Source: a phage. Taken from it: DNA of 43,583 bases. The translations under genes were made by a program, and so were the position numbers. Below the pieces are notes generated by a model. It made no database searches. It saw only the letters and a list, made by a program, of their open reading frames with translations, and was not told the origin of the DNA. This document shows positions 18,237-43,583 of this stretch, piece by piece; within the stretch, counting starts at the first letter, position 1; each line of letters opens with the position of its first letter. The DNA is taken from NCBI GenBank assembly GCA_012646105.1, contig GCA_012646105.1_4328.1, one strand, 5' to 3'.

Positions 18237-18758
18237 ATGGTTACTACGGTAATTACTTTCCCTGCGTATGTAGGGGCGAAAATCTGCAGGGCTAAAAACG
18301 ATGTGCGCTACTATTTGAACGCTTTTTACATAGAACCTGAGGGGTTGATAGTGTCTACGGATGGGCATAGATTGTTCTGCGACAATGTGAAGACAAACGT
18401 TGAGAAAGGGGTTCTCATTGATATCAAAGGGAGAGAGCCTTCTAAATTTAACTACGCAGAGGTAGACCACGACAACGGCAGTGTTTCTTTCTATGACGAT
18501 AGTCGCGCGCTTATATGTACACTTCCGGTAGATGTTGTAGAAGGAAACTTTCCTGACTGGAGACGCGTGGCGCACATCACACCGGGTGTTGTCGATAGTA
18601 TAGGGTTCACTCTGCGTTATTTGGCAGACGCGTACAAGATTTCTAAGGCGTACAAAAATGAAATTTCTCGTTTCGATTTCCAGGACCAAACCAGAGGATG
18701 CAAAATATCATTTTCAAACACGGCCTTTATGGTGTTAATGCCCGCGCGATTTAAATAA
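18237..18758 (+). CDS. hypothetical protein (173 aa), counter-oriented insertion in head module
   Basis: strong RBS, own promoter and terminator; no motif recognised. Confidence 0.6.
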   Translation: MVTTVITFPAYVGAKICRAKNDVRYYLNAFYIEPEGLIVSTDGHRLFCDNVKTNVEKGVLIDIKGREPSKFNYAEVDHDNGSVSFYDDSRALICTLPVDVVEGNFPDWRRVAHITPGVVDSIGFTLRYLADAYKISKAYKNEISRFDFQDQTRGCKISFSNTAFMVLMPARFK

Positions 18759-27119: not shown

Positions 27120-27608
27120 TTAAGTATGCAGTAACTGGAGGATAGCACGGTTAGGAATTATCCTAATAGTTGTTTGGTAATAATCTTGCCGCCTGTGTTG
27201 GTGTCGAACTTCGATGCAACGGCTACGCCGCCATGCGCCGCCATGCGCCGAATATCCGCACTCCATAGCGGCTAATGCATATGGCGAGCCAGACCCCACG
27301 GCGGCGTACACATCAGCAACCGGAATAACTGAACTAAGCGCACAATCCCATGATTTATAGAACGCGACTTTGTACACCTTTTCTGTGTCTTTCACGAACA
27401 CCAGGGCTTCGAAATCGAAGTCATAGTGCTGTGGCCGAAGAATACCAGGGCAATCGATAAGCATAGTGCCAACTCCTGCGTCGCCAGCCACACCAATAAC
27501 AGCAAAATCATTCTCATATATCTTTGTGTCTGTGTTGTAGCAGTTACTTCCGCACACAACACGGGTGTCACAACCCATTGTCTTTCCGTCAAATGCGATA
27601 GTAGTCAT
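27120..27608 (-). CDS. HslV-like Ntn-hydrolase peptidase homolog, C-terminus possibly frameshifted by a 10 bp duplication
   Basis: MTTIAFDGK N-terminus, NDFAVIGVAGDAG and AVGSGSPYALAAM blocks resemble HslV; tandem CCATGCGCCG x2 at 27231-27250. Confidence 0.5.
   Translation of the reverse strand: MTTIAFDGKTMGCDTRVVCGSNCYNTDTKIYENDFAVIGVAGDAGVGTMLIDCPGILRPQHYDFDFEALVFVKDTEKVYKVAFYKSWDCALSSVIPVADVYAAVGSGSPYALAAMECGYSAHGGAWRRSRCIEVRHQHRRQDYYQTTIRIIPNRAILQLLHT
27231..27250. repeat. perfect 10 bp tandem duplication CCATGCGCCG-CCATGCGCCG inside coding sequence
   Basis: seen directly in sequence. Confidence 0.9.
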
Positions 27609-30697: not shown

Positions 30698-30756
30698 AAG
30701 AAAGCCCCGACGCGGTGAACGCCGAGGCTAAATTACTTGCTGAAGGAATATACAAC

Positions 30757-32997
30757 ATGTCCGATGTAATTTTATCCTACTCGTGGTCTCGTCGCAACGC
30801 GCGGGCGGAGAAAAAGGATATAAACGTCAGAACCACACACACGGCAACACTGGACGACCTGAAAGAGTTAATCCAGCCGCTCGATGCCGTTCGCGATGGG
30901 GTTAACCTGAAGACCGCGCCCGGCTATATCACGGCCGCGTGTGACTCTACGCACAGCACCGTAAAAGACCCGGAAACAGGTGACTTTAAGCAAGCTCGTA
31001 AAGGCTTCTTCTATCGCTGTGACGCGTCTGTAAGCAAATCGTCGCTGGCATATCTGGACTTCGACAGCGCAACGCCGGAAGAGTATCAGGAAGCTGTGCG
31101 CCTGGTTAAGCGCAGCCGTAAAGCCATGTGCCTTTACACCACGGCATCACATACCGATGAGTCCCCACGCTTTCGCGTCGTCATGCCGCTGGCCCGCCCG
31201 GTCGAAGGCGGCGACATCATCCGTGTTCGCCACGGGTTGCTGGAGCATTTCTTTAAGGGCATGGGTGCTGACCGCAGCGGGTTCACTCTGTCCCAGCCTA
31301 TGTACCTGCCGCCGGTCGGCTCGCAGGTTATCTGGTCGCGTCGCAATGACCCGATTGACCCGGACGAGTTACTGGAAGGCATCCCGGATTACGAGGTGAG
31401 CAGCGCATCTGACTACCAGATACCGGAAGAACTGCGCACAGCGTTTACGGACGCGTTTGAGGCACTGGCGTTCGAGTACGGCGGCATCATGACGCCACGC
31501 GGCCTTAAGATGCCCGCCACACTAGAACACGCAGAAAACTACAGCGACCCGACGCCGCGTCCTGACGACTTCCTGCTGTGTTTCCCGCGTGAAGGATATG
31601 AAGCGCCGAACGTAACCATGATTCACGACACCGACATTACGGCAACCGAAGGCATGTCGCCGAAAGAGGTGTGGAAGTACGCGTGTGATGCTACAGGGCT
31701 TCCGTTCAGTGAAGTTGCAGAGGCTATCGGCTGGGGTGCGCGTGAATCTGTTTCATGCAGCCTCGACGACCTGGAAGACGACGATGACTCAGAGGAGGAC
31801 GAGCTACCAGAACCAGTAAAGGCTGATTTCGTCGTTGAAGGGTACATGCCGTCGGATTGCATCTGGGACATCGTCGGGGAGTCTGGTACGTATAAATCCT
31901 TCTATACGCTGGGGATGATGTACCTGAGCGCCGCCGGATACCGGTTTGCAGGGGCAGACACCCAGCGTTGCCATCACTTCTATATCGACGGTGAAGGCGG
32001 CGCAGCTACCCGCACCCGTATCGATGCGCTCACGGCTAAATATGGCGAGGAAGGTAAAGATTATGTGCATGTCATAGATATGGGCGAAGTCGGCAAGCTG
32101 AAAAACCTGATTAAGTTGATGCGTGAAACTGCTGGCGACGAGCCAATTGGCATGGTCGCGTTCGACACTCTCAACCAGACACTGGCCCTGACGATTGATA
32201 AGTTCGACGAGAACAGTTCATCAACGGCAATCGGCATGGGTAAAGTTATCGCCATCCTGAAAGAAGTACGTGACGCAACTAAAGCCGCGGTGGGCGTCGT
32301 CCACCATACACCGAAGGGCGGAAAGAAAGCCCGTGGCAGCGGGGCGCTGTATGCGGGTGTCGATGTGGAACTGACAATAGAACGTGCAACCGACCGTCAG
32401 ATAAACGTATACCACTCGAAATTTAAGCACGGGCCTCAACAGAAAACGGTTGGTATGGTGCTCGAGTCTGTACAGTTCCGTGAAGCACCACCGCCGAAAG
32501 AGTACCGTGCTGTTGAGTTCTTGGGCAGCACAGAGGAATACGGCACAATCGTAAACCTCGACCTGCCGGAACCACACAAGGCGCTTGTTCTGATGCCGTG
32601 GGGCTTCGAGCCGTTCAAAACTGACGAGGAGAAAGAGCGGGAAGAAGGGTTAACTAACGAAGGTAAACAAAAAGTAAAGGAAGAAGTTAAACGCGGCAGG
32701 GATGAAGTAAGGAAGGAGTCGATACTTTCGGCACTGGAAGACCTGCAACAGTCAGATGACACAGGTCGCGGTTTTACTCAGCAGCAGATAGTGGCCCGTT
32801 CCGGTGACTTTTCTGTGACTAACACCCATCTTGATAAAATGCTGAAAGATGGTGAACTAATGCTAGGCTGTGATGCTAATGGCGAAGTAGTACCGAGAAC
32901 GTATCGTATACCTGAAAGAATAGGGGATAGACTAAGACCGAAGACAATATACGAACCGAATGAAATGCTGGTAGTGACAGAAGAGGATTTGGAATAG
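30757..32997 (+). CDS. DNA primase / replicative helicase fusion (alternative GTG start 30715)
   Basis: C-terminal Walker A GESGTYKS and Walker B VAFDTL, N-terminal primase-like region; RBS GAAGGA. Confidence 0.7.
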   Translation: MSDVILSYSWSRRNARAEKKDINVRTTHTATLDDLKELIQPLDAVRDGVNLKTAPGYITAACDSTHSTVKDPETGDFKQARKGFFYRCDASVSKSSLAYLDFDSATPEEYQEAVRLVKRSRKAMCLYTTASHTDESPRFRVVMPLARPVEGGDIIRVRHGLLEHFFKGMGADRSGFTLSQPMYLPPVGSQVIWSRRNDPIDPDELLEGIPDYEVSSASDYQIPEELRTAFTDAFEALAFEYGGIMTPRGLKMPATLEHAENYSDPTPRPDDFLLCFPREGYEAPNVTMIHDTDITATEGMSPKEVWKYACDATGLPFSEVAEAIGWGARESVSCSLDDLEDDDDSEEDELPEPVKADFVVEGYMPSDCIWDIVGESGTYKSFYTLGMMYLSAAGYRFAGADTQRCHHFYIDGEGGAATRTRIDALTAKYGEEGKDYVHVIDMGEVGKLKNLIKLMRETAGDEPIGMVAFDTLNQTLALTIDKFDENSSSTAIGMGKVIAILKEVRDATKAAVGVVHHTPKGGKKARGSGALYAGVDVELTIERATDRQINVYHSKFKHGPQQKTVGMVLESVQFREAPPPKEYRAVEFLGSTEEYGTIVNLDLPEPHKALVLMPWGFEPFKTDEEKEREEGLTNEGKQKVKEEVKRGRDEVRKESILSALEDLQQSDDTGRGFTQQQIVARSGDFSVTNTHLDKMLKDGELMLGCDANGEVVPRTYRIPERIGDRLRPKTIYEPNEMLVVTEEDLE

Positions 32998-34116: not shown

Positions 34117-34389
34117 ATGATTTACCAACTCTACCGAGCCGTAGACAGGCGGGATAGCACAGAGGCGTTATGGCTGTTGCGCGCTCCGTCCGGTGCGCAC
34201 CAGATGGAAGAGATGGCGTACTTAGGCAAAGTACCACGGCCTAAAGATATAGGCCGTCACGTGTCGCAGATTAAGCGCACGACTTTCGCCAAACCTGACT
34301 TTTATGTCTTCGAGTCGATGTATGGATGGGCGATGCATTGCCACCACCAGACACGACATTTAATTGACCAGTGGGAGAGCAGAGTATGA
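34117..34389 (+). CDS. hypothetical protein (90 aa)
   Basis: ATG 34117 with RBS GAGGG; ORF-track start 33979 overlaps upstream gene. Confidence 0.5.
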   Translation: MIYQLYRAVDRRDSTEALWLLRAPSGAHQMEEMAYLGKVPRPKDIGRHVSQIKRTTFAKPDFYVFESMYGWAMHCHHQTRHLIDQWESRV

Positions 34390-34883
34390 ATTGGCATGAA
34401 GTTTTTGACTATGACCCTGATACCGGTAAATTATTTTGGAAAATAAGTCCGTCAAAATCTGTAAAAATAGGGCAAGAAGCTGGCAGTACGAGGGAGGACA
34501 ACGACGGGAGTGAATTTAAAATACTACGTTTTAACGGGACTACTAAACTTATCCACCACGTAGTTTGGGAGATGTTTAACGGGCCGATAGCGCCGGGGGA
34601 AGTAATTCGTCATAAAAATAAAGATAGAACTGATAACAGAATAGAAAATCTTATAAAAATGCGCCGAGGTAGTATCGCACACGGCACCAACATACGGACG
34701 GACAATACTTCAGGGGTTAAAGGTGTTGGGTTTCATAAACGCTACGGTAAGTGGGTCGCGAGAATTTATGTAGACGGCAGGCCGATTTATTTAGGGGCCT
34801 ACGATAAGTTAGAGAACGCGGCTAAGGCTCGTAGGCAAGCCGAGATTAAATATGGGTTTACAGTTAACGGGGCTGAGAAATGA
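34386..34883 (+). CDS. HNH endonuclease with AP2-type DNA-binding domain (free-standing homing endonuclease)
   Basis: HHVVWEMFNGPIAPGEVIRHKNKDRTDNRIENL HNH motif; GVKGVGFHKRYGKWVARIYVDGRPIYLGAY AP2-like. Confidence 0.75.
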   Translation: MNWHEVFDYDPDTGKLFWKISPSKSVKIGQEAGSTREDNDGSEFKILRFNGTTKLIHHVVWEMFNGPIAPGEVIRHKNKDRTDNRIENLIKMRRGSIAHGTNIRTDNTSGVKGVGFHKRYGKWVARIYVDGRPIYLGAYDKLENAAKARRQAEIKYGFTVNGAEK

Positions 34884-39578: not shown

Positions 39579-39863
39579 ATGACCCCGGAAGGAAAGATTC
39601 AGAAATACGCAAAAGAGCAATTCGAGGCCATTGGCGGCCTCGTTCGTAAGATGGCATTTGAAGGTCGGCGGGCCGCCATGGACCTCCTGGTAATTCTCCC
39701 CGGCGGCATCGTCTGGTTCGTCGAGGTTAAGAAAGACGAAAACACGAAGCCAGACCCGCACCAACTACGGGAACATGAGAGATTTCGAAAACGTGGCGCT
39801 AATGTTTTTGTCGTTGGTTCGTTTAAACAGGTTGACGACCTAATAGCGAACTATTATAGTTAG
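39579..39863 (+). CDS. VRR-NUC domain nuclease (94 aa)
   Basis: DLLVILPGGIVWFVEVK PD-(D/E)xK-type core. Confidence 0.6.
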   Translation: MTPEGKIQKYAKEQFEAIGGLVRKMAFEGRRAAMDLLVILPGGIVWFVEVKKDENTKPDPHQLREHERFRKRGANVFVVGSFKQVDDLIANYYS

Positions 39864-39893
39864 TCCCACACCAACAATATAAGGAATTGAGAA

Positions 39894-40064
39894 ATGAAAC
39901 ACGAATATGACCGCAAACCAGCACGTGACATCGTACCGGGCGACATGATTTTCAACGTTAAGACACGTCGTCCTGTTGCCGTTGATACGGTGTTCGTCGA
40001 GTCGAACGGTAAACTGGTTATCGAAGATGTAACCGGTAACGTTACGGCGTTCGGGCGTAAATAG
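39894..40064 (+). CDS. small hypothetical protein (56 aa)
   Basis: hand translated (MKHEYDRKPARDIVPGDMIF...); RBS AAGGA. Confidence 0.45.
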   Translation: MKHEYDRKPARDIVPGDMIFNVKTRRPVAVDTVFVESNGKLVIEDVTGNVTAFGRK

Positions 40065-40081
40065 CTGGTGCTGGTGGCGAA

Positions 40082-40915
40082 ATGAGTAAATTTGATGTGA
40101 TTATTGGTGACTGTAGGCGCACCGTACGCGGCATCGCAGCTAATAGCGTTGATACCATCATAACTAGCCCACCGTATTTCAATCTAAGAGACTATGGCAA
40201 CGACTTACAGATAGGTAGGGAAAAACAATTAGATGACTATATAGCATCGCTGGTATCAGTATTCAACCGTGCTAAACGCGCGCTTAAGCCAGACGGAACA
40301 TTATGGATTAACATCGGCGACTCTTACGGGAAAGGAAAACAACTGTTAGGTGTACCGTGGAAACTTGCGTTTGCGCTTCAGGATGCTGGATGGATTCTAC
40401 GCCAGGACATAATCTGGAGTAAGCCAAACCCTATGCCGGAAAGCGTTAAAGACCGATGCACACGAGCGCATGAATACATATTTCTTTTTAGTAAATCAGA
40501 GAAATATTATTTCGACTATAACGCGATAAAAGAGCCAGCCGTTAGTGCGCCACGTAAGCGAGAGAAGAACAACGGCGAAAGTGCGGTAGATACTAAGTTA
40601 CGAGGCAACAGTGGTTGTTGTGGTGTTACTAGCGAATTTCGTAATAAACGCGATGTATGGAGCGTTTCTACCAAATCATATCCTGGTGCGCATTTCGCTA
40701 CATTTCCGCCAGATTTGATAATTCCGTGCGTTCTGGCTGGAAGTAGAGAAAGCGGCGTAGTTCTTGATGTTTTTGGCGGTTCGGGTACAACGGCGGGAGT
40801 GGCCAATGCATTAGGACGAGACGCGATCATTTGCGAACTAAACGAAGATTACGCCGCGCTGATACCAGATAGAGTGGAAAGCATAATCGCTAAATACGGG
40901 AGTAGAAATGTCTAA
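40082..40915 (+). CDS. DNA methyltransferase, beta-class amino-MTase (N6-adenine or N4-cytosine)
   Basis: motif IV SPPY near N-terminus before motif I FGGSGTT; no cognate endonuclease found. Confidence 0.8.
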   Translation: MSKFDVIIGDCRRTVRGIAANSVDTIITSPPYFNLRDYGNDLQIGREKQLDDYIASLVSVFNRAKRALKPDGTLWINIGDSYGKGKQLLGVPWKLAFALQDAGWILRQDIIWSKPNPMPESVKDRCTRAHEYIFLFSKSEKYYFDYNAIKEPAVSAPRKREKNNGESAVDTKLRGNSGCCGVTSEFRNKRDVWSVSTKSYPGAHFATFPPDLIIPCVLAGSRESGVVLDVFGGSGTTAGVANALGRDAIICELNEDYAALIPDRVESIIAKYGSRNV

Positions 40916-42332
40916 GTTTCAAAGGCGCGAGTACCAGAAGCTAATGACTTCGTTCATGTTGCAGCACCATCGCTGCAACATATGGGCAAGCATGGGTGCC
41001 GGGAAGACTGGCAGCGTACTGTGGGCTTTAAACCGCTTGTTCCGCAACGGTCAGCTTACGGAAGAGGACCGCGTGTTAATCCTCGCCCCGTTACGCGTTG
41101 CATCGGGTACATGGCCCGCAGAACAAGAGAAATGGAACTTCCCGTGTCTGCGTGTCGTAGACGCGACCGGTTCAGAGAAGCGCCGCATCGCGGCGCTGGA
41201 GTCGGACGCTAACGTGGTATGCACCAACTACGAAGTTATCGAGTGGCTGATTGACTACTACGGCAAAGACGACTGGCCTTTTACGGTTATCGTTGCCGAT
41301 GAGAGCACGAAGCTGAAATCTTTCCGTAGCCGTTCAGGGGGCAGCAAGCGGGCAAAGGCGCTTAGTAAAGTGGCATTCGGTAAGGTTAAGCGTTTCATCA
41401 ACCTTACCGGTACGCCATCACCAAATGGCCTCAAAGACCTGTGGGGCCAGAACTGGTTTATCGACGCTGGCGAGCGCCTCGGTTCTTCATACACGGCATT
41501 CACCGACCGATGGTTTAACTCTGTCCAGAAAGGTAAGTCGGCGATGGCGCGAGAGTATCATGCGCGCCCGGGGGCGGATAATGAGATTCACCAGAAGATG
41601 AAGGACATTAGTCTCACGATTGACGCTGCCGAGTGGTTTGGCTGCGAAGCGCCGATTATTGTACCGGTTGAAATCGACCTGCCGAAGAAAGCGCGTCAGG
41701 CGTACATCGATATGGAGGAGAAGTTATTCGCGGAACTGGAGAGCGGAGAAGTTGAAGCTGCTAACGCCGCGGCGAAGACATCTAAGTGTCTGCAGATTGC
41801 ATCCGGTGCCGTATATGTGTCGGGGCCAGATGGTGAAGCAACGAAAGACTGGGAGAAAGTGCACGACACGAAACTGGATGCGCTGGAGTCGATTGTTGAG
41901 GAGTTACAGGGTGCGCCGCTGCTTGTGGCCTATCAGTTTAAGCACGAACTGGAGCGCATCCTTAAGCGATTCCCGCAGGCTCAGGCGTTTGCCAAAGGCG
42001 CTAAGGGTAATAAGCAGATGGAAGCGTGGAACCGAGGTGAGATACCTATGCTCTTGATACACCCAGCCTCAGCAGGCCACGGACTGTCGCTACAACACGG
42101 CGGGCACCACATGGCCTTTATGAGCCAGGGGTGGAACCTGGAACATTATCTGCAGGTTATCGAGCGTATAGGCCCAGTAAGGCAGATGCAATCCGGATAC
42201 AAACGGTCTGTATTCATTTATCAAATAATAGCACGAGATACTCTTGATGAAGTTGTCGCCTCTCGTACAGACGAGAAAAGGTCTGTGCAGGATGAACTAC
42301 TTAATTATATGAAGCGCAGAGGTAAGAAATGA
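40908..42332 (+). CDS. SNF2/DEAD-like superfamily 2 helicase (474 aa)
   Basis: Walker A ASMGAGKT, DEST box VADESTKLK, C-terminal helicase domain; overlaps MTase by 8 nt. Confidence 0.7.
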   Translation: MSKFQRREYQKLMTSFMLQHHRCNIWASMGAGKTGSVLWALNRLFRNGQLTEEDRVLILAPLRVASGTWPAEQEKWNFPCLRVVDATGSEKRRIAALESDANVVCTNYEVIEWLIDYYGKDDWPFTVIVADESTKLKSFRSRSGGSKRAKALSKVAFGKVKRFINLTGTPSPNGLKDLWGQNWFIDAGERLGSSYTAFTDRWFNSVQKGKSAMAREYHARPGADNEIHQKMKDISLTIDAAEWFGCEAPIIVPVEIDLPKKARQAYIDMEEKLFAELESGEVEAANAAAKTSKCLQIASGAVYVSGPDGEATKDWEKVHDTKLDALESIVEELQGAPLLVAYQFKHELERILKRFPQAQAFAKGAKGNKQMEAWNRGEIPMLLIHPASAGHGLSLQHGGHHMAFMSQGWNLEHYLQVIERIGPVRQMQSGYKRSVFIYQIIARDTLDEVVASRTDEKRSVQDELLNYMKRRGKK

Positions 42333-42676: not shown

Positions 42677-43583
42677 TTACCAGTCAGTGTAAACGATTAA
42701 TCCACGCATTAAGTTTCTATATATTGTTGTGGTGCTGGAAGGAAAGTTGAATTGTATTGTAGACATTTTACCTTTTACAGGTGATGCAATAGCACTCTTC
42801 ATCCCAAACTTAAATGGCGCTGCCGAAGTGATAGCGGTATAAGTTACGTCCTCTCCGAAGTATCCATCCTCTGTAGCCCCCATTAAGACTGCACCATTTA
42901 TAGATGCACCACCATTCAGTGCGATCATCTGAACCCAAGCGCTAAAGCCTTTCCTATACCTGATAGTGGTAGCAAAAGCTGACGATGCACCTTTGAATGC
43001 AATACCAGACACTTTTACATCGGTTTGCGTGGTTGTATGGTCACTATTGGCAGAAGCCGTAATTATACGGGTAGGCCATGCATTATTGGTAATCAAACCA
43101 TCGCTACTATTTGGGTCTTTAGGCATAGCCTTTTGGAGTAAACCACCTAAACTCCAATGAGTTCCTGATGTACGCCCACCTCCAAATAGATAAGCCTCAG
43201 TAACGAGGGGTTTAACATAGGTTTTCGCAGCGAGTCCTTGTACCAGTTCCCTAAACCTTTGTGTATCTCGTATTCTTGCTGTGATCCCAGCATCACCGAC
43301 ACCATCCCATACAAAAGCACCAAATTCACCATTGCCGGCTTGTCCGAAGATATCACCAGCTTTTTGCATCTGCTCTACGGTGCCAAAGTTTGCACCTGAA
43401 AAGGCTGCTACTACAGGGATAACACGCGTAGTATTAAGCATCTGCATTAAGCCGCCATAGTCTAAGCGCATATGAATCAAGTCCTCTTCTACTGCCTCGT
43501 CAGTAGTAACACCATCCCGTGCTAATGAGTATGAGTTACACAGGACTATGTCATATTTGGTTGAGTAGCACTGTTCGAATGGA
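42677..43583 (-). CDS. 5'-truncated ORF (at least 302 codons), possible C-terminal part of tailspike or other tail protein
   Basis: frame open to the window end with no stop; ORF-track start 43480 is only the first TTG; ends at bidirectional terminator. Confidence 0.45.
   Translation of the reverse strand, partial: PFEQCYSTKYDIVLCNSYSLARDGVTTDEAVEEDLIHMRLDYGGLMQMLNTTRVIPVVAAFSGANFGTVEQMQKAGDIFGQAGNGEFGAFVWDGVGDAGITARIRDTQRFRELVQGLAAKTYVKPLVTEAYLFGGGRTSGTHWSLGGLLQKAMPKDPNSSDGLITNNAWPTRIITASANSDHTTTQTDVKVSGIAFKGASSAFATTIRYRKGFSAWVQMIALNGGASINGAVLMGATEDGYFGEDVTYTAITSAAPFKFGMKSAIASPVKGKMSTIQFNFPSSTTTIYRNLMRGLIVYTDW

Follow-up and report, generated by a model that had tools for sequence, protein, structure and literature searches.

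Beta-class DNA amino-methyltransferases are defined by a circularly permuted order, in which the catalytic motif IV (D/S/N-P-P-Y/F) comes ahead of the S-adenosylmethionine (SAM)-binding motif I (FxGxG) (PMC7544214). SPPY is the catalytic motif of most bacterial N4-cytosine (N4C) methyltransferases, whereas N6-adenine (N6A) enzymes have DPPY, and mutation of SPPY abolishes formation of N4-methylcytosine (4mC) by the N4C enzyme N4CMT (PMC8885841). A structural rationale for SPPY in N4C enzymes has also been described (PMC10406627). Here we describe a gene of this class in a phage contig of 43,583 nucleotides (nt) (GCA_012646105.1_4328.1), the whole of which is referred to as the window. The gene lies between a small gene, itself preceded by a VRR-Nuc nuclease gene, and a SNF2-family helicase gene (region 39579-42332, Table 1). 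We explain it as an orphan, horizontally acquired beta-class methyltransferase in an accessory-gene hotspot, which would write 4mC and protect progeny phage from restriction, and give this explanation as a whole a probability of about 0.62.

The methyltransferase matched PF01555 (N6_N4_Mtase) over profile positions 1-218 of 221 (E = 3.1e-53, 181.4 bits against a cut-off of 26.7), phrog_67 (E = 5e-71) and the PADLOC Type II model MTase_II (E = 6e-94). Motif IV lies N-terminal to motif I, and the motif order is therefore that of the beta class. Moreover, the protein is full length and retains all 82 of the columns that are invariant across 18 homologues. An AlphaFold model of the protein (predicted local distance difference test, pLDDT, 76.8; predicted template modelling score, pTM, 0.78) was of low confidence at residues 116-127 and 168-205. 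Foldseek matched this model to the N6A enzymes M.BceJIV (8URK), CcrM (6PBD), M.RsrI and M.MboIIA and to the N4C enzymes M.PvuII (1BOO) and rotifer N4CMT (8S9M), with E values of 2e-17 to 5e-15 and template modelling (TM) scores of 0.62-0.72. These solved enzymes have fold and motif order in common with the window protein, and the N4C pair also has in common with it an S-P-P-aromatic catalytic motif. However, they are distant in sequence (21-29% identity) and their recognition elements are not kept, so that their targets are not transferable. CcrM is also longer, at 366 amino acids (aa) against 277, and has a C-terminal domain that the window protein lacks. Judged by profile score, motif order and fold, the gene is an intact beta-class DNA amino-methyltransferase, as the first-pass annotation, made from the sequence alone, had read it from SPPY preceding FGGSGTT.

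The nuclease, the small gene and the helicase are common to the relatives of this phage (79-98% protein identity), whereas the content between the small gene and the helicase varies. Nothing is found at this position in fFiEco02, G AB-2017, NRG857CP3 and most Jerseyviruses. A 227-aa protein with a weak PF00145 match occupies it in EC3-1, horsemountain, FSL SP-101 and Klebsiella phage D1, and a C5 methyltransferase of ~265-275 aa (PF00145, E = 3e-21) in ORH_001, K1ind1, Bas70-72, Bas75 and Bas76, whilst SS3e has an HNH protein and ST20 a 217-aa protein without a Pfam match. The C5 'C-specific methylase' cassettes (K1ind1, ORH_001, Bas70-72/75/76, EC3-1 and FSL SP-101) resemble the window gene in position, in their codon-exact junctions and in their orphan status. 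However, they match the C5-cytosine family PF00145 rather than PF01555, and the proteins are unrelated: comparison of the window methyltransferase with those of EC3-1 and ORH_001 gave BLASTP E values of 3.3 and 0.21, respectively.

Alignment of the junctions placed the limits of the exchange to the codon. On the left, homology among the phages extends to a common 'GGTGGCGAAATGA', the ATG of which is the start codon of all three cassettes, and on the right it restarts exactly at the helicase ATG. The C5 cassettes have a common ATGA at their start, and their stop codons overlap or abut the helicase ATG. In the window, the methyltransferase stop codon is supplied by the conserved helicase codons 2-3, and the unrelated EC3-1 gene has an identical 8-nt overlap. 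The overlap, which the first-pass annotation had pointed out and which the coordinates reproduce exactly, is therefore a property of the junction. On this comparison, the position is an accessory-gene hotspot in the Guernseyvirinae replication module, running from the small gene to the SNF2 helicase, and the bracketing of the methyltransferase by nuclease and helicase is predicted to be positional, not functional. The window gene thus adds a cassette type to a hotspot of a kind already known, and within its very large family it is unremarkable.

Table 1. Features of the methyltransferase region, in window coordinates.
Feature	Position	Strand	Details
Sigma-70-like promoter match	39832..39860	+	TTGACG-17-TATAGT, 10/12; just upstream of the small gene
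VRR-Nuc family nuclease (Holliday-junction-resolvase-like), backbone gene outside the cassette	39579..39863	+	94 aa; homology to 4QBN
Small conserved gene	39894..40064	+	56 aa; phrog_4879, E = 9e-42
Beta-class amino-methyltransferase, cassette gene	40082..40915	+	277 aa; PF01555, phrog_67, PADLOC MTase_II
Exchanged cassette stretch, no nt homology to ORH_001	40086..40905	.	local blastn and junction alignments; begins just behind the common ATGA and ends just ahead of the helicase ATG
Catalytic motif IV, TSPPY	40163..40177	+	aa 28-32
SAM-binding motif I, FGGSGTT	40772..40792	+	aa 231-237
Methyltransferase/helicase overlap	40908..40915	+	8 nt; helicase ATG 40908-40910, methyltransferase TAA 40913-40915
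SNF2-family helicase, backbone replication gene	40908..42332	+	474 aa; PF00176, phrog_62

The cassette looks foreign and horizontally acquired from its composition and distribution. Its GC content at third codon positions was 0.40, compared with 0.49-0.60 in five neighbouring genes. No protein more than 60% identical was found in 50,697 GenBank phage records, the best matches (59%) being from Serratia phages, and a search of 5,426 complete E. coli genomes yielded nothing near-identical but only two matches of 135-148 bp at 70% identity. Identical or 97-99% identical proteins were found on metagenome-derived contigs of 43-44.5 kb. In particular, the 97% version (P0003) is carried by two metagenomic Kagunavirus contigs with the same gene order and with the cassette at the same place. 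Between these contigs and the window the cassette is 94.6% identical at the nucleotide level and the flanks just 87-90%; a cassette more alike than its flanks fits spread by recombination among Kagunaviruses.

The methyltransferase family itself is large, with 8,000 candidates at E<=1e-10. Orphan members of phrog_67/PF01555 are found in Serratia phages (Smarc2, ChibiTotoro and Tsm2), Dickeya jumbo phages, T4-like cyanophages, mycobacteriophages and an E. coli lambdoid prophage (P0005). Like the window gene they are phage-borne and orphan, with 47-64% identity over the full length and invariant TSPPY and FGGSGTT, but they differ in host phage, in genome position and, by subgroup, in a segment at about residues 145-190. 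This segment, which is also poorly modelled, is the probable target-recognition region. The window protein has a segment of the 'EK.NGES..D.K.RG...CCG' type, as do P0005, P0006, P0007 and P0103, whilst the type found in Serratia phages is unlike it; the specificities of the window enzyme and its phrog_67 relatives probably differ.

Homologues were found in varied contexts: after NinB in an E. coli lambdoid prophage; in a prophage that also encodes an S24 repressor, RusA and a holin; in arrays of two or three methyltransferases; and in replication modules with RdgC or a SNF2 helicase. The arrays, which combine PF01555 and PF00145 genes on contigs of 49-89 kb (L010, L011, L012 and L017, the last a 49-kb phage-like contig), look like a multi-methyltransferase anti-restriction arrangement. 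On an unrelated phage-like metagenome contig of 54.9 kb (L020, 3604-5897), a homologue with the window's type of recognition region directly follows a SNF2 helicase gene, with a 4-nt overlap and downstream of PolA, the order of helicase and methyltransferase being the reverse of that in the window.

The orphan status of the gene was assessed against a genome that is, from its matches, an almost complete Kagunavirus (Guernseyvirinae) genome. Of the first 25 kb of the window, 85-92% aligns at ~90% nucleotide identity with Escherichia phages Ivi, fBC-Eco01, ORH_001 and EC3-1. The region 39579-42332 matches 453 phage records, nearly all of them Escherichia and Salmonella phages, and we classed the window as a Kagunavirus because those records that bear a taxonomy line are Guernseyvirinae of the genus Kagunavirus or Jerseyvirus. 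Both ends of the window lie within a tailspike gene (1-1075 and 42680-43583, - strand), and the genome is therefore essentially complete, with at most some tailspike sequence missing. Neither of the terminal tailspike stretches is related to the tail fibre of ORH_001. Joining the two ends leaves the open stretches for the tailspike N-terminus (370 codons) and C-terminus (314 codons) out of frame with each other, with ~70 nt in common across the junction; the explanation would be either the loss or duplication of a few bases at the cut or the absence of part of the gene.

Six-frame open reading frames (ORFs) of at least 75 aa, 82 in total, were scanned against PADLOC. None matched a restriction endonuclease model, although restriction endonucleases are diverse and can escape profiles. 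The sole match to an endonuclease model was that of the HNH/AP2 protein at 34371-34883 to the homing endonuclease model (HEase). Other matches were a weak SNF2-type match for the helicase, a weak PD-(D/E)XK match for the DUF2800 exonuclease and three marginal AAA/DpdD matches. Where the window has no alignment to ORH_001, it encodes this HNH protein, a phrog_3007 protein, an HslV-like protein, small proteins of no assigned function, a primase-helicase N-terminus that has diverged and the tailspike; all other window genes map to conserved Kagunavirus genes. Moreover, no endonuclease neighbour was seen in nine homologue contexts inspected, all of which were phage or prophage. The first-pass annotation had reported no restriction endonuclease partner and had named an adjacent cognate endonuclease in the full genome as a finding that would overturn its view; we looked for one in this essentially complete genome and found none.

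The catalytic motif bears on which base is modified. TSPPY was present in 120/120 of the closest homologues, and DPPY or NPPY in 0/120, an implication for base specificity that the first-pass annotation did not mention. Since SPPY is invariant here and is typical of N4C enzymes, N4-cytosine is preferred as the target base: methylation at N4-cytosine is probably more likely than adenine methylation for the window enzyme, the SPPY rule being a correlation.

The proposed course of events is as follows. The methyltransferase gene lies on the same strand as the replication genes (in the order primase-helicase, DUF2800 exonuclease, Enc34-type single-stranded DNA-binding protein, PolA, VRR-Nuc and SNF2 helicase), its 3′ end overlaps the helicase gene and a terminator scan of the region found no convincing terminator near it; it would probably be co-transcribed with them. 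A single temporal expression class contains both methyltransferase genes and the gene for the family A DNA polymerase of Kagunavirus K1B4 (PMC12645636). The enzyme would then act on newly replicated phage DNA ahead of packaging, methylating cytosine N4 in a short specific sequence set by the variable region at about residues 145-190. Progeny genomes would thereby be shielded from any Type II restriction enzyme of the host whose site matches, at the cost of exposure to Type IV restriction that depends on methyl-cytosine, such as McrBC. McrBC cleaves DNA containing 5-methylcytosine, 5-hydroxymethylcytosine or N4-methylcytosine. McrBC digestion has been applied to N4CMT-modified DNA (PMC8885841). 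A trade-off of this kind would explain why the position varies among near-identical phages, empty positions included, and the turnover of unrelated methyltransferases there fits host-specific selection. As there is no endonuclease partner, and the homologues inspected are phage or prophage genes without a neighbouring endonuclease, self-protective anti-restriction methylation seems the most likely function. A literature search for a characterised family member or for Kagunavirus methylation returned only generic annotation, the BASEL data on sensitivity to restriction-modification and one transcriptome.

Several observations weigh against this explanation. No 4- or 6-bp palindrome differed between the window and ORH_001 when observed counts were compared with Markov expectation, and the target-motif prediction proposed in the first-pass annotation thus gave no candidate for the protected site. 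A promoter scan of the region returned 5 sites against 6.3 expected from shuffled sequence, and the terminator scan was likewise at chance level. BASEL Kagunaviruses were highly sensitive to the restriction-modification systems tested (PMC11990801), despite the fact that Bas70-72, 75 and 76 carry methyltransferases at the same position; any protection would therefore be narrow. Lastly, both sequence searches of the PDB and fold similarity rank N6A and N4C enzymes almost equally, and public records name the homologues 'adenine methylase' or 'dam'.

These last points bear on an alternative in which the orphan cassette is the same but encodes an N6-adenine methyltransferase with Dam- or CcrM-like chemistry. 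The best PDB matches, by sequence as well as by fold, are the N6A enzymes M.BceJIV and CcrM, and CcrM is also the best NCBIfam match, albeit far under the cut-off (100 against 830 bits). Against this stands the catalytic motif, given that not one of the 120 closest homologues has the DPPY or NPPY form. Moreover, the N4C enzymes N4CMT and PvuII fit the fold almost as well (TM 0.67), and names such as 'DNA adenine methylase' in public records come from automatic annotation, not from experiment. We therefore consider adenine methylation the less likely of the two. A bolder form of the N4-cytosine reading, to which we would give somewhat less than even odds, is that the position is a dedicated locus for codon-exact exchange, at which Guernseyvirinae swap anti-restriction methyltransferases of C5 and N4 chemistry, and that the window's very large, phage-borne TSPPY family, routinely misannotated as Dam or adenine methylases, in fact writes 4mC. 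If this were true, 4mC would be a far commoner mark of phage DNA than annotations imply, as the family spans cyanophages, mycobacteriophages and enterobacterial phages.

The first-pass annotation had combined two ideas, anti-restriction methylation by an orphan enzyme and its coupling to replication or recombination functions. Orphan status and a probable anti-restriction role are retained here, the latter by inference. The coupling is not, as the flanking genes are conserved across Guernseyvirinae whether the position is empty or filled. In such a coupled arrangement the methyltransferase would be a working partner of both neighbours during replication, recombination or packaging, and might mark strands or junctions instead of countering restriction. 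Its tight placement inside the replication module, with the 8-nt overlap, would suit this, as would the homologue that comes right after a SNF2 helicase, overlapping it by 4 nt, on the unrelated contig L020. However, nuclease and helicase remain 79-95% identical in relatives in which the position is empty or holds methyltransferases of another chemistry, other homologues adjoin NinB, RdgC or further methyltransferases, and the cassette is compositionally foreign. The only link to the neighbours that emerged is probable co-transcription, together with start and stop codons that overlap or adjoin inside the replication module; as far as conservation indicates, the nuclease and the helicase serve replication and recombination in the ordinary way, independently of the methyltransferase, and we regard a joint function as improbable.

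Nuclease, methyltransferase and helicase could also be read as one phage-borne unit for restriction or defence, of a Type III/ISP- or DISARM-like kind, with the 'VRR-NUC' as its endonuclease. This reading can be effectively dismissed: although some records label the nuclease a 'putative restriction endonuclease' and the helicase weakly matches the DrmD, ZorD and DpdE models, the helicase falls far under their cut-offs (for DrmD, 30.9 bits against 950), the nuclease is a close relative of a dimer with a Holliday-junction-resolvase fold (~82% identical to saNUC), and many relatives keep both genes but have no methyltransferase, a state that a true restriction system would make lethal and that means the unit is not co-inherited.

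Phages are well known both for orphan methyltransferases and for mosaic hotspots of accessory genes, and the conceptual change brought by an orphan, probably N4-cytosine-specific methyltransferase at this position is small. Its interest is more practical. Kagunaviruses are under development as small model and therapeutic phages, and their host range is limited by restriction; knowing the cassette of a phage and its target would help to predict how it plates on clinical strains. If its cytosines were methylated, the phage would be open to McrBC-type restriction, a point to weigh in the choice of production host. Moreover, the invariant SPPY suggests that, in this large phage family, the name 'adenine methylase' has in many cases been given in error.

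The flanking nuclease has a crystallised counterpart. PDB entry 4QBN is saNUC of Salmonella phage SETP3, which its depositors describe as a VRR-Nuc; the protein forms a dimer, folds like a Holliday-junction resolvase and cleaves junctions weakly (PMC4103454). The window protein matches it with E = 2.5e-49 and ~82% identity over 92 residues (identity as counted here), and also matches phrog_93 (E = 1e-30) and phrog_5702 'Holliday junction resolvase' (E = 2e-17). The Pfam VRR-NUC model gave no match to it even at E<=1, the sole Pfam match being a sub-threshold one to pPIWI_RE_REase (E = 0.13). In the 4QBN alignment the catalytic D (in 'MDLLV') and E-V-K (in 'FVEVKK') are retained, with MD in the window protein where saNUC has PD, before the catalytic aspartate. 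The earlier assignment to VRR-NUC is thus upheld through homology to 4QBN, notwithstanding the Pfam result.

The methyltransferase had been described as following this nuclease. The nuclease does lie upstream, but not directly, as an overlooked small gene intervenes (Table 1). This gene is shortened to 56 aa by a point change that creates a TAG at 40062-40064; in relatives, including the metagenomic contigs with the same methyltransferase, its product is 63-64 aa long and its end overlaps the start of the following gene in an ATGA. The window has therefore lost the direct coupling of this stop codon to the methyltransferase start. The small gene was considered as a controller-type regulator of the methyltransferase and rejected in this role, because relatives that lack a methyltransferase altogether also conserve it. 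Between the VRR-Nuc gene and the small gene lies another variable insertion point, where XY1 (L013, 515-718) and phiSD1 (L014, 517-771) have an extra gene of 67-84 aa that is not present in the window. The promoter match upstream of the small gene (Table 1) could conceivably drive small gene, methyltransferase and helicase.

The helicase matched PF00176 (SNF2-rel_dom) with E = 1.1e-13 (51.4 bits, cut-off 24.9) and phrog_62 with E = 3e-168, in agreement with its earlier description as SNF2-like, and fell just under the cut-off for Helicase_C (20.4 against 23.5 bits). Its first 165 residues show 91-95% protein identity in four relatives.

Other regions of the window also vary among these phages. 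The HNH_3 and AP2 homing endonuclease gene (34371-34883, + strand; PF13392, E = 2e-14; phrog_99, E = 9e-52) lies directly upstream of the DUF2800 exonuclease gene, in a stretch (34390-34879) that is absent from ORH_001, and is probably a mobile homing-endonuclease insertion. An ORF of 173 aa (18237-18758, + strand) matches phrog_3007 'RusA-like Holliday junction resolvase' (E = 8e-37) and gives weak matches of a sliding-clamp type; it is on the opposite strand to the surrounding structural genes, and its stretch is absent from ORH_001, which has an HNH gene nearby. Part of the stretch that holds a further ORF, of 162 aa (27120-27608, - strand), is likewise missing from ORH_001; this ORF matches phrog_1040 'peptidase HslV family' (E = 7e-26) and, more weakly, the Proteasome family of Pfam. 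Between 30471 and 31755 (+ strand), the ~350 N-terminal codons of the 760-aa primase-helicase (30715-32997) and an upstream 77-aa gene have no nucleotide alignment to ORH_001; the 31-32 kb interval has the highest GC content of the window (0.577).

Lastly, GATC is strongly depleted in the window, with 12 sites (37, 455, 10527, 15297, 15577, 22415, 28386, 29555, 38405, 40825, 42923 and 43283) against 153 expected under a maximal-order Markov model (z = -11.4). ORH_001 is likewise poor in GATC (14 against 159 expected), and CTAG is also scarce in the window (24 against 74 expected). This scarcity suggests long-standing selection against Dam or GATC-restriction sites in this group of phages.

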